From the NCBI GenBank assembly GCA_027619975.1, contig JAQCGX010000009.1, forward strand, positions 5,813 to 69,812: a DNA stretch of 64,000 nt, given 5' to 3'. This DNA comes from Nitrospinota bacterium (GTDB taxonomy: Bacteria > Nitrospinota > Nitrospinia > Nitrospinales > VA-1). Of the stretch, positions 58,395 through 61,708 are shown piece by piece (the stretch's first letter is position 1; every line of letters begins with the position of its first letter). The position numbers and the translations under genes are program-made. The notes below the pieces were generated by a model, which saw only the letters and a list, made by a program, of their open reading frames with translations, was not told the DNA's origin and did no database searches.

Positions 58395-58693
58395 TATCGG
58401 CCGCCACCCTACTTATTTTTTACTAAAAAAATTCATTTGAATATTAACGATTTATATCATGAAATCGGCATTATCGGAACCACGAATTTGCGTGCCACAA
58501 ATTTTTGGGAATTTATTTCCCAACCTCAGGATGATAGAGAGAAATATCTTCCTACCTTGCAATTAAGCGAAATGCATTAACAAAAAAACCTGGTTACCGA
58601 CACCGATTACAAAAATGAAACTTATTAGTTTTGTGAAATTCATCTCTAAGACCGTTAAAGTATCGTATGACTAAAAACCTTGGAGTCACATAA

Positions 58694-58833
58694 GGACACC
58701 TCTAAAAATTAGTTTTTAAGTGGCACGGGCTTTCCAGCCCGTGCGAACAGGCTGGAAAGCCTGTCCCACTATAACAAAGACACTTCTTTGAATTGACGAT
58801 ATAAGAACATTTAGTCAATTTTTAGAGGTGCCC
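58694..58833. mobile_element. MITE-like element, copy A (140 bp)
   Basis: Terminal inverted repeats are GGACACCTCTAAAAATT and AATTTTTAGAGGTGCCC. It is flanked by ATAA on both sides (58690-58693, 58834-58837). The internal double palindrome is cacgggc-TTTCCA-gcccgtg / acaggc-TGGAAA-gcctgt. Confidence 0.75.
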
Positions 58834-59206
58834 ATAATTTCTGGATAAATCCTTACAGCAACCTTCACCCCTTGAAACAGCAATAAATATCCGTATAGCA
58901 AATATTACCTTTACCTTCCCTATAATATCAGCTAAACTGTAACAAATAAAGACTTCCTTACAACCCAGAAAAGTTATTATGGACGAACGGGTAAAAACCC
59001 CTTAGAATGGCAAAAATGAGGACTTTTCCTCGCCGATTACCTGTCTTCTATGACACTATTTCAGTGTTGAATTAAGAAGAAATGATTGCTTGTTCGCTGG
59101 TATTCAGCATATACCAGACCCGAACTTTGGAAACCTTCCCTAACCCACTAAATTTAATTCATTATCTATTGACCCACTTTCAATTAACCCTATTTAGGAG
59201 AAAAAG

Positions 59207-60514
59207 ATGTCCACAGCCACTGCTGCTGAAAAATTTAAGGTAAAAGACCTCTCACTGGCTGAATGGGGCAGGCAGGAGATGATTCTTGCTGAAAAGGAAA
59301 TGCCCGGATTGATGGCCCTGCGCGATAAACACGGAAAATCCAAACCTCTTAAAGGAGCAAGGATTGCGGGCTCTCTGCACATGACCATTCAAACCGCCGT
59401 TCTGATAGAAACCCTGATCGAACTTGGTGCCCAGGTCCGATGGGCATCCTGCAATATTTTTTCTACGCAGGACCACGCTGCAGCGGCAATTGCTAAAGCA
59501 GGTATTCCTGTATTCGCCTGGAAAGGTGAAACCGAAGAAGAGTATTGGTGGTGTACCGGGCAAACCCTGTTGTTTGATAATGGCCAGGGCCCTAACATGA
59601 TCCTAGACGATGGCGGCGATTTGACCTGCTACGTGCATAAAAATCACCCGGAATTTCTCGCCGATCTAAAAGGCGTTACCGAGGAAACCACAACCGGCGT
59701 ACACAACCTATACAAGATGTTGAAGGACGGGTCTCTAAAGCTTCCGGCAATGAACGTCAATGACTCCGTCACCAAATCCAAATTCGACAACCTTTACGGT
59801 TGCCGCGAATCTCTGGCGGATGGCATCAAACGGGCCACAGACATCATGATTGCGGGAAAAGTAGTGGTGATCGCAGGTTATGGGGATGTGGGTAAGGGTT
59901 GCGCCAGGGCCATGCGCGATCTCGGAGCCCGCGTTCTGGTGACGGAAATTGACCCCATTTGCGCCCTGCAAGCCGCCATGGAAGGATACGAAGTGACCAC
60001 CATGGAAGAAGGCGTGAAGGAGGGAAATATTTTCGTCACCACCACTGGCTGTAAAGATATCATCACCATTGGACATATGGAAGCGATGAAAGACGATGCT
60101 ATTGTCTGCAACATCGGTCATTTCGACATTGAGATTCAGGTAGAACAACTGAACAAATTCCCCGGAATCAAAAAAATCGAAATCAAACCGCAGGTGGACA
60201 AATATACCTTTCCGAAGGGGAACAGCATCATCCTGTTGGCCGAAGGAAGACTTGTCAACCTCGGTTGCGCTACCGGACACCCTTCCTTCGTCATGTCCAA
60301 CTCCTTCACCAACCAGGTGCTGGCGCAGATGGAGTTGTACAATAATAAATACGAAGTTGGCGTTTACACCCTTCCAAAAATACTGGACGAGGAAGTCGCC
60401 CGGTTGCATTTGGACAAGCTTGGCGTCAAGTTAACCACCATGACAAAGGAGCAGTCGGAATATTTGAATCTCCCGCTTAAAGGCCCGTACAAACCGGATA
60501 CGTACCGGTACTAG
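59207..60514 (+). CDS. ahcY: adenosylhomocysteinase
   Basis: 435 aa with [23 protein letters not shown], the NAD site [10 protein letters not shown], and [10 protein letters not shown]. Confidence 0.96.
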
Positions 60515-60583
60515 AAATTTGTACTGGGAGTCGCGCTGAGTTTGTCGAAAGCTGACTTTAAATTGAATCTGTTTAATACTAAA

Positions 60584-60612
60584 ACGGCGTTCCTAAGGAG
60601 CGCCGTTTTTTT
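60584..60612 (+). terminator. rho-independent terminator of ahcY
   Basis: acggcgttcc-taa-ggagcgccgt followed by T7. Confidence 0.8.
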
Positions 60613-60686
60613 ATACCTGTTTTCAATCTCCACTTTTTTCAGGTAAAACGGAAATAGCTCTTCCGTATCAAATGCCATTAATATAA

Positions 60687-60862
60687 GGGTACCTCTAAAA
60701 ATTAGTTTTTAAAAGGGAATTGAACATTGTAAAGAGTTTCTTAAATCAGTGGCACGGGCTTTCCAGCCCGTGCGAACAGGCTGGAAAGCCTGTCCCACTA
60801 TAACAAAGACACTTCTTTGAATTGACAATATAAGAACATTTAGTCAATTTTTAGAGGTGCCC
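60687..60862. mobile_element. MITE-like element, copy B (176 bp)
   Basis: It has the same orientation and sequence as copy A, plus a 36-nt internal insertion. The TIRs are GGGTACCTCTAAAAATT and AATTTTTAGAGGTGCCC. ATAA flanks it on both sides (60683-60686, 60863-60866). Confidence 0.75.
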
Positions 60863-60930
60863 ATAAGAATTACTTTTTTTTAATCACTGACAGGAAACAA
60901 CATGGGTCGTCACCTTTGCCAAAGAATATT

Positions 60931-61708
60931 ATGAGTCCGGTCTGGCCGCGACATCATATATTCAAAAAGCGCATTGGGTGGTTCGCCGTTATATTCTTTC
61001 TTACCGTCTCATTTCCGGCACAACCGAAAACTGCAATCATACCGGACATGGTTCTGATCAAAGTAAATTGTTTCACGATGGGAAGCGAGGAGTTCGTGGC
61101 GAGGAACCAGAGCATAAAGTATGCCTCAATTCTTTTTACCTGGGGGTTTACGAAGTCACTCAAAAACAATTCAAGAAAGTCATGGGTTGCAACCCATCTC
61201 ATTTCAAGGGACCCAACCTGCCGGTTGAAAATGTCTCCTGGCCTGAAGCAGACGCCTATTGCCGGACTTTCGCCGGCCCACTTCCAACCGAAGCGGAATG
61301 GAAATATGTTGCCCGGGCGGGCTCTTCCACCGCTTATTCATGGGGCTGGGACATGGACGATACATTCGCCTGGCACCGGGGCAATTCCAAAAATATGACG
61401 CATCCCGTCGGGCAAAAAAAGCGAACTCTGCAGGCATTCACGATATGAACGGCAATGTCTGGGAATGGGTTGGCGACTGGTACCGCGAAGATTATTTTGA
61501 GACGAGCGCCGTAGCCCAACCGGTGGACAACCCGCTGGGCCTAACCACCGGACAATTTGTCATCCTTCGCGGCGGCTCCTTCGAGGATGAAGCATATTTT
61601 CTCAGATCCGCCTCCCGCTACTGGTACCCGCCGACCTTGAAGCACCACAACCTGGGGTTTCGGTGCGCCGCCAACCCCATGGAAATCAAAGAGGGGAATC
61701 TGCAATGA
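60931..61708 (+). pseudogene. FGE/SUMF1-family gene interrupted by two frameshifts
   Basis: The conserved FGE blocks are spread over three frames. These are the signal peptide+MVLIKVNCFTMGSEE, then EEPEHKVCLNSFYLGVYEVT...PLPTEAEWKYVARAG...HPVGQKK, then NSAGIHDMNGNVWEWVGDWY...ILRGGSF...GFRCA. The breaks are near 61095-61102 and in the A7 run 61414-61420. Confidence 0.75.

Follow-up and report, generated by a model that had tools for sequence, protein, structure and literature searches.

Two copies of a high-copy MITE that joins IS5-type ends to a core of REP hairpins lie beside the resident ahcY gene of a Nitrospinaceae bacterium

When a gene lies between two near-identical, similarly oriented mobile elements, did the elements carry it to its place or did they arrive beside it? 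The question is raised by ahcY in the window analysed here, a 64,000-nt stretch of a Nitrospinaceae metagenome-assembled genome (MAG). The gene (59207-60514, plus strand) encodes an S-adenosylhomocysteine hydrolase of 435 aa with the Pfam domains AdoHcyase and AdoHcyase_NAD, and it lies between a 140-nt element (58694-58833) and a 176-nt element (60687-60862), two plus-strand copies of one element in direct orientation. A sequence-only reading had regarded the pair as MITE-like and as forming a composite-transposon-like unit around ahcY. We find that ahcY is a resident gene and not cargo, and that the two copies very probably arose as separate, recent insertions, each into an ATAA target beside the gene, of a MITE of about 100 copies with IS5-type ends and a core of REP hairpins.

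The two repeats share 119 nt at 99% identity and a further 30 nt at 93%, and their coordinates agree with the earlier description. Their termini are inverted over 20 nt with 90% complementarity; the TIR, which had been put at 14-17 bp, is 17 bp long with the GGG included (GGGCAYCTCTAAAAATT). In copy 1, the left terminal inverted repeat (TIR; GGACACCTCTAAAAATT, 58694-58710, plus strand) agrees with IS5-family ends at 15-17 of 17 positions, and the right one (58817-58833, minus strand) is recognised by the repeat and by its match to the 14-mer CACCTCTAAAAATT, which occurs four times in the window at no more than one mismatch, against an expectation of 0.03. The core of copy 1 consists of a first hairpin on the plus strand (58720-58744; GTGG-CACGGGC-TTTCCA-GCCCGTG-C), designed like the REPs around a RAYT gene on contig C18, and a second, inverted one (58745-58769), the minus strand of which reads GTGG-GACAGGC-TTTCCA-GCCTGTTC; the corresponding doublet of copy 2 occupies 60749-60798 (hairpins 60749-60773 and 60774-60798). 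This double palindrome with complementary loops, already recognised from the letters, folds as single-stranded DNA at -37.4 kcal/mol (z = -7.6). Neither window copy contains a reading frame of at least 70 aa, and an Rfam search of the element returned nothing at threshold; all that appeared, below it, were miRNA models resembling the hairpins.

Both copies belong to arm subfamily S1 and have core type A, and they differ by a 36-nt segment of the left arm (60712-60747 in copy 2), delimited in an alignment of 66 copies with a boundary that is ambiguous by 1-2 nt. The segment had been interpreted as an insertion in copy 2; because all other copies of S1 and both sister subfamilies carry it, the difference is instead a deletion unique to copy 1, the only 140-nt form in the genome, and copy 2 has the canonical length of 176 nt.

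The pair is far from alone in the genome. The 2.9-Mb MAG holds 66 complete copies of 140-222 nt, 55 of its 144 contig ends (38%) stop inside a copy, and the family is estimated to comprise about 95-120 copies; in four runs that contain both ahcY copies, their word depth is 20-50 times that of the flanks. A perfect, AT-rich 4-bp target-site duplication (TSD) lies directly outside the GGG...CCC termini in 55 of 65 copies and is imperfect or missing in the other 10; flanks paired at random match in 10% of cases. The duplicated words comprise 17 different 4-mers, led by TTAA (15 copies), TTTA and TTAT (6 each), and TAAA and ATAA (5 each), and 60 of the 66 copies are intergenic. In the window, ATAA stands on each side of each copy (58690-58693 and 58834-58837 around copy 1, 60683-60686 and 60863-60866 around copy 2).

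The history of the two insertions is most directly read from a sister strain that is approximately 96% identical (69 differences in 1855 nt) and is represented by 46-kb contigs crossing both sites. There, ahcY is found at the same position and both sites are precisely empty, with one ATAA each: at site 1 the contig skips exactly 144 nt (140 + 4, with the five letters CATAA ambiguous), and site 2 reads ATAA-GAATTAC. The sister strain likewise lacks two more copies, both on contig C17, with exact skips of 226 and 225 nt. Since both sites beside ahcY are precisely empty, the two copies are independent and recent insertions; the single ATAA at each empty site bears out the proposed 4-bp duplication, and we infer transposition from this insertion polymorphism.

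The two states of the locus are distributed unevenly among the sequencing runs. The sister strain lacks copy 1 in runs X10, X19 and X20, and copy 2 in X19 and X20; the empty sites were seen solely in runs with a lower word share. Both copies are in place in four runs from four studies, and in the four best DNA runs the Logan contigs reveal no read that skips either element. Exact-protein look-ups with AhcY, FliE and a 141-aa neighbour retrieved only contigs that hold both elements identically or break inside them, which argues that these contigs derive from the same population.

The same comparison bears on the proposal that the pair is a composite transposon that brought or moved ahcY by means of its outer MITE ends. 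The direct orientation, the near-identity of the copies and the presence of ATAA at all four flanks would suit such a unit, and there are known cases, the TIME-COMPs (PMC13367494), in which paired MITEs mobilise the genes between them. However, the strain in which both sites are empty retains the gene in place, and each copy has a TSD of its own, on the inner side as well. Furthermore, ahcY is single-copy in the genome (one match), and of three other species of the genus that were compared, two retain synteny upstream of it. ATAA is also a common target of the family, accounting for 5 of the 55 perfect TSDs, and two copies would have identical TSDs by chance in about 1 case in 10. Three marks of a composite transposon, namely a duplication at the outer ends only, an empty locus without the gene and the whole unit at other loci or on other replicons, were all absent. 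We therefore reject the composite unit, whose probability we regard as negligible.

Other species of the genus add little to the reading of the sites. Orthologues of ahcY in the genus are 90-93% identical, and in the locus comparison with G001, G003 and G004 the gene is 82-84% identical; the empty site is unreadable in these three genomes, where the intergenic DNA is unalignable and downstream synteny is lost. No full-length copy of the element was found in the other species of the genus, three genomes giving no match and two giving short core-like matches. Five exact copies of the 17-nt end occur in the genome of one other species of the genus (G005). Single-ended matches to the 17-mer in other Nitrospinota were considered as possible IS and discarded; no transposase adjoins them, and they belong to different small elements, likewise non-coding, with the same end.

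The sequence-only reading had further suggested that the elements may affect the expression of their neighbours. The intrinsic terminator of ahcY (60581-60613, plus strand; 13-bp stem, 3-nt loop and U7; RNA fold -21 kcal/mol, z = -4.9) lies within the 172 nt between the ahcY stop codon and copy 2, which places copy 2 outside the ahcY transcript; upstream, 373 nt separate the end of copy 1 from the ATG. These positions agree with those described earlier (copy 1 about 370 bp upstream of ahcY, copy 2 behind the terminator); the distance from copy 2 to the decayed FGE gene, given there as about 65 bp, is 53 nt when counted to the first start codon in its broken frame. Co-option of the pair for regulation, as promoter, terminator, RNA-stabilising hairpin or small RNA acting on ahcY, the divergent upstream gene or the FGE pseudogene, would be in keeping with the strong folding of the elements, with the known effects of MITEs and REPs on neighbouring transcripts (PMC10969869) and with RNA contigs matching other copies, which indicate that copies are transcribed in some contexts. 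Nevertheless, both copies are recent and, being missing from the sister strain, not conserved; copy 2 lies beside a gene that is already broken, and reads of ahcY begin no earlier than 59173, downstream of copy 1. The region is no richer in promoter-like and terminator-like sites than shuffled sequence, and the family as a whole shows no orientation bias relative to genes (28 copies co-oriented versus 17 opposed). The RNA data, metatranscriptomes at 2-4x, are too thin for transcript ends, and they contain nothing that links the elements to the ahcY transcript. A regulatory role is, in our judgement, quite improbable, and the suggested effect on the neighbours' expression finds no support. Both copies lie outside the ahcY transcript, and the insertions appear neutral; for ahcY, a resident gene, they are of little consequence.

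If the copies are separate MITE insertions, the question arises of which enzyme moved them. The search for an autonomous partner, recommended by the earlier reading, succeeded in other genomes and not in the organism's own assembly. IS5-family elements of 1271-1293 bp whose ends are identical to the MITE end at 15-17 of 17 positions occur in G078, another Nitrospinaceae genome, and in Alphaproteobacteria. The G078 element is 1276 bp long, with one end identical to that of the MITE at 16 of 17 positions, and its 347-aa transposase scores 291 bits on NF033581; its flank is colinear with contig C28 of the genome studied here (G000), which indicates that the IS resides in genuine Nitrospinaceae DNA. 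Seventy-one related IS copies end in GGGCACCTCTAA(A/G)AAT(T/A/C), and 55 of them have a perfect 4-bp TSD, most commonly TTAA. The ends of the MITE and the length and spectrum of its TSDs thus match those of IS5-family copies. The MITE resembles these IS in the terminal 17 bp and no further, so that simple deletion within such an IS does not account for it.

With these matching ends, the earlier identification of the elements as MITEs is well founded: short non-coding units bounded by TIRs, with a TSD of fixed length and variable sequence, are dispersed in many copies and polymorphic between strains, with precise empty sites.

A transposase of the matching clade was not found in this assembly, whose completeness of 96.6% does not prove its absence from the cell. 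Within this genome, five pairs of ends 1.3-5.7 kb apart were considered as candidates for a longer element of the same type and discarded, since they are due to chance or, on contig C46, to a truncated copy beside a short copy. When the G078 IS was compared with the metagenomes that hold the organism, only fragmentary and diverse relatives appeared, which are not assignable to it. The only IS5-family (DDE_Tnp_1) gene in the assembly is on contig C70. Its intact 310-aa frame after the ATG and its membership of NF033581 would make it a candidate resident source of the enzyme; yet this single-copy gene is only 29-30% identical to the matching clade, and the ends of its IS (GGAGACCTTTGCGTAAGGCA, inside CCTCCCC...) agree with that of the MITE at approximately 9 of 17 positions by manual count. 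Mobilisation by the C70 transposase is accordingly improbable.

The interior of the element points to a second kind of mobile DNA. An ORF on contig C18 is a RAYT (96.5 bits on NF047646, cut-off 80) and is surrounded by REPs of the form GT(A/G)GCACAGGCTTTCCAGCCTGTGC at C18:96, 637 and 692. The core hairpins of the MITE, GTGG-headed, G+C-rich and arranged as an inverted doublet, match these REPs, which suggests that the core may originate from the RAYT system. Across the family we distinguish three arm subfamilies and four core arrangements, all four of which occur in two of the subfamilies and three in the third. These alternative arrangements are compatible with mobilisation by RAYT and do not show it.

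It could be argued that the resident RAYT moved the whole element as a REPIN and that the termini are incidental, given that the core is a doublet of the type flanking the C18 gene and that doublets with the same cassette also occur outside MITE arms. IS200/IS605-type HUH enzymes, however, are not known to produce a target duplication or to need TIRs. The 4-bp TSDs of the family lie directly outside the 17-bp TIRs, both features are shared with IS5-family elements, and the empty sites are exact for units running from TIR to TIR, not for the core. We thus consider this explanation highly improbable.

The separate-insertion reading leads us to the following mechanism. After the split from the sister strain, each copy would have inserted independently into an ATAA. 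An IS5-family DDE transposase (DUF772 plus DDE_Tnp_1, NF033581 type) would bind the two 17-bp ends, and a staggered 4-bp cut in the AT-rich target, followed by gap repair, would generate the TSD. The enzyme would act in trans and, judging by the shared ends, may have been supplied by the IS clade described above. The body is not IS-derived: its two short arms enclose inverted, paired REP hairpins of the genome's RAYT type, so that two kinds of mobile DNA are combined in one chimeric element. In this lineage the family would have expanded in a burst to about 100 copies, with the ahcY pair as bystanders.

A more specific account of this burst is tentative, and we hold it to be possible rather than probable: an element of two layers, in which an IS5-type shell carries a REPIN, was amplified by a non-resident, transient enzyme delivered horizontally, and its core was reshuffled by RAYT. 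The matching IS clade has one copy in Nitrospinaceae, which is compositionally foreign there, and many in marine Alphaproteobacteria; combined with a two-layered element, this distribution would point to a burst driven by a transient enzyme. If so, the pair at ahcY represents two products of that burst.

In the family, an uncultured marine nitrite oxidiser preserves the record of a recent burst specific to its lineage. It accounts for the fragmentation of the MAG, in view of the contig ends that stop in its copies, and provides about 100 strain-resolving insertion markers. It also offers a natural case of a DDE-type MITE with an HUH-type REP-doublet body; its amplification, apparently without a resident cognate transposase, makes the question of the transposase source testable. 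A description of a REPIN within a MITE shell was not found in the literature searched.

Among known systems, the element most resembles prokaryotic MITEs such as Correia/NEMIS, RUP, Nezha, Chunjie and QMITE (PMC10969869, PMC3184786), with which it shares its small non-coding body, 17-bp TIRs, fixed TSD and high copy number, as well as intergenic placement, strong folding, subfamilies, internal deletions and insertion polymorphism between strains. It differs in its sequence, which has no relation to those of the named families, in its REP-doublet centre, and in that the match to the partner IS is confined to the terminal 17 bp. With elements of the IS5 subgroup of the IS5 family (NF033581) it has in common the end GGGCACCTCTAA(A/G)AATT, a 4-bp TSD and AT-rich targets with TTAA commonest; unlike them it encodes nothing, and the resident C70 element belongs to another clade with other ends. 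GTAG-type REPs and REPINs and their RAYTs (PMC2817692, PMC3116915, PMC3733652) share with its core the GTGG/GTAG head, the G+C-rich palindrome and the inverted pairing, but in the MITE the doublet sits inside a TIR-bounded, TSD-carrying unit, which points to a DDE-type route. Finally, as in TIME-COMPs (PMC13367494) and integron mobilization units, two directly oriented MITEs bracket a gene; in contrast to these, each copy at ahcY is bordered by a separate TSD, and a strain with neither copy has the gene as a resident of the locus.

Both sequences flanking ahcY (59207..60514) are copies of one element, as had been proposed from the sequence alone. Copy 1 (58694-58833, 140 nt) and copy 2 (60687-60862, 176 nt), both of arm subfamily S1 and core type A, have common blocks of 119 nt at 99% identity and 30 nt at 93%, and each carries inverted termini with ATAA on either side; the window contains four occurrences of the terminal 14-mer at no more than one mismatch, where chance predicts 0.03. 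The centre of the element is a 52-nt near-palindrome comprising two hairpins with complementary loops, and the 176-nt copy, folded as single-stranded DNA, gives -37.4 kcal/mol (z = -7.6). This is a real MITE pair. The 36-nt difference, which had been taken for an insertion in copy 2, is instead a deletion in copy 1, because the left-arm segment concerned (60712-60747) is present in every other copy of a 66-copy alignment in which copy 1 is the only one of 140 nt.

These 66 complete elements, found by BLAST and a terminus scan, are the genome-wide count for the assembly holding the window (G000:C49:5813-69812; 2.93 Mb, 72 contigs, 47.5% G+C). Measured from one 14-mer terminus to the other, their lengths cluster at ~170 and ~216 nt, or ~176 and ~222 nt with GGG and CCC included. 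Another 55 ends stand alone, each no more than 260 nt from the end of a contig, so that 55 of 144 contig ends (38%) break in the family (for example C5:48-64, C9:49-65 and C49:52-65), which makes it the main cause of the fragmentation of this MAG; the true copy number is roughly 95-120. The alignment resolves three arm subfamilies and four core arrangements, all four occurring in S2 and S3 and three in S1: type A has two REP-like hairpins, type B a single long palindrome, and types C and D add to type A a 46-nt cassette, carried by one hairpin or the other and in opposite orientation.

In 55 of 65 copies GGG...CCC is immediately bracketed by a perfect 4-bp direct repeat, versus 10% in random pairings of the same flanks, which bears out the reading of ATAA as a 4-bp target duplication. 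The duplicated 4-mers vary by copy and are AT-rich (TTAA 15, TTTA 6, TTAT 6, TAAA 5, ATAA 5 and others), so ATAA at both window copies is unremarkable. We considered whether the repeats merely extend the terminal inverted repeats (TIRs); this was rejected, since non-palindromic 4-mers are repeated in direct and not in inverted form, as true duplications are.

The two copies had also been read as a composite-transposon-like unit around ahcY, an idea that failed every defining test. In three long assemblies and several short contigs with identical AhcY or FliE, both copies are present in identical form or the sequence breaks inside them, and in Logan contigs from four studies the unique flanks continue into both elements. 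A 46-kb contig of a sister strain (public runs X19 and X20; 69 differences in 1855 nt, ~96% identity) spans the whole ahcY locus. At site 1 exactly 144 nt (140 + 4) are missing from it, the five letters CATAA fitting either side, and the same empty site occurs in run X10; its sequence at site 2, ATAA-GAATTAC and then a T run, is a precise empty site. The T8 run after copy 2 (60874-60881) is one T shorter there, a homopolymer length polymorphism. ahcY is single-copy in the assembly and resident in the sister strain with one original ATAA per site; thus, copies 1 and 2 are independent, recent insertions beside a resident gene rather than parts of a conserved region. Two more insertions, on contig C17, are also missing from the sister strain, again precisely, with 226 and 225 nt skipped. 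Another C17 copy sits in a variable spot, where the sister strain has 1427 nt of different sequence in place of 341 nt (C17:32914-33256; L197:16914-17256) that include the copy. Elsewhere, a 628-aa ORF whose start resembles a signal peptide lies between a right-truncated copy (C46:24607-24745) and a separate short one that has an internal deletion (C46:26632-26773); a composite was rejected here too, the flanks of the two copies being mismatched.

Among five other species of the genus, three gave no match to the element and two only short core-like matches; one, G005, holds five exact copies of the 17-nt end. A full-length copy, 86% identical, occurs in one genome of another family of the same order. 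The 222-nt copy at C28:106373-106588 corresponds to an intergenic gap of only ~60 nt between the orthologous genes beside an IS in another Nitrospinaceae genome (L116, G078), a further, distant empty site.

An effect of the elements on neighbouring genes is unsupported. Copy 1 stops 373 nt short of the ahcY ATG, and the start of a divergent 141-aa gene is ~350 nt away from this copy; copy 2 stands beyond the ahcY terminator and ahead of an FGE-sulfatase gene (60916-61708). That gene is split in all assemblies, being called as two or three separate pieces in each of the three others of the population, and fits a pseudogene. Promoter-like and terminator-like sites were at chance level in our scan. 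Metatranscriptome cover of ahcY is 2-4x, with the earliest read start at 59173, and RNA contigs matching the element run on into other flanks and so derive from other copies. Of the 66 family members 60 are intergenic, orientation relative to genes is unbiased (28 co-oriented versus 17 opposed), and many copies lie 3-10 nt from a gene 3' end, as expected because the targets contain TAA. Nothing indicates a regulatory role for copies 1 and 2.

The suggestion of an autonomous partner of IS630/Tc1 or IS5 type held in part: IS5-family elements with the same ends exist elsewhere, and none was found in this assembly. Its sole DDE_Tnp_1 gene (C70:64339-65460) encodes an IS5-family transposase with different ends of its own. 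The resident element (C70:64160-65355, ~1.2 kb, 20-bp ends GGAGACCTTTGCGTAAGGCA) appears to occupy the loop of a CCTCCCC/GGGGAGG hairpin, a TTCGTAA repeat standing on either side, and a MITE copy stands 155 nt from it, at the contig end. The exact 17-mer end is patchily distributed, occurring in 21 of 120 Nitrospinota genomes (a reversed control was never found), and in other lineages it is joined to other small bodies. Quite different bodies bear it at L075 (G021:C12:1576554-1576588), L079, L083, L084 and L086, among them one bare 35-nt end-to-end pair and one recurrent one-ended unit, GGGCACCTCTAAAAATTGCTTTTGGCCATGAGC-hairpin-GCGAGTTGCC.

G078 has a 1276-bp unit whose product is a 347-aa transposase (NF033581, 291 bits; DUF772 and DDE_Tnp_1); the right end of the unit, GGGCACCTCTAAAAATA, agrees with the MITE end in 16 of 17 positions. 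The DNA beside the unit is colinear with contig C28 across three ORFs, which places the IS in genuine Nitrospinaceae DNA; the G+C of the IS is 53% versus 41% for the flank. Marine Alphaproteobacteria have relatives of it, 78-93% identical, in multiple copies. The metagenomes that contain our organism also yield relatives of the IS, not assignable to that organism. All 71 IS copies with both ends terminate in GGGCACCTCTAA(A/G)AAT(T/A/C), a few exactly like the MITE; 55 of the 71 have perfect 4-bp duplications, with the same AT-rich spectrum, in which TTAA is again commonest. MITE-IS similarity is limited to the terminal 17 bp, and tblastn against the assembly found no gene of the matching clade, only the C70 gene at 29-30% identity. 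Because ends and duplications match, a link of the MITE to an IS5-type transposase is well supported.

The core points to a second system. The single Y1 transposase of the assembly (C18:~145-608, outside the window) scores 96.5 bits on NF047646, REP-associated tyrosine transposase (RAYT; cut-off 80), and is flanked on both sides by hairpins of the form GT(A/G)G-CACAGGC-TTTCCA-GCCTGTG (GT(A/G)GCACAGGCTTTCCAGCCTGTGC at C18:96, 637 and 692). Both MITE hairpins are identical to these REPs in head and loop, their stems differing by compensatory changes, and this RAYT is likely the home system of the core hairpins. Free REPs and REP doublets, some with the 46-nt cassette, also exist outside MITEs; four doublets with the cassette (GGCGGAATTAAATTCCGC...TTTAAGG.TAGGTC) lack MITE arms and TIRs (C13:18662-18790, C24:21874-21990, C43:22458-22580 and C48:55218-55340), so the cassette-bearing core is also a free unit. 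The head and loop matches and the free doublets argue that the MITE core is a REP doublet of the host RAYT system inside an IS5-type shell. As IS200/IS605-type enzymes leave no target duplication, the whole unit would move by the DDE route.

We regard the family as an ordinary class of element whose chimeric construction is modestly unusual and which recently underwent a burst, and its significance as low to moderate. A non-exhaustive search of the REP and MITE literature turned up no account of a TIR-bounded MITE whose body is a REP doublet. The ahcY-flanking element meets the general definition of prokaryotic MITEs (PMC10969869, PMC3184786), and its core fits GTAG-type REPs, REPINs and RAYTs (PMC2817692, PMC3116915, PMC3733652). 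Composites bounded by MITEs are known (TIME-COMPs, PMC13367494), but the ahcY pair is not of that kind.
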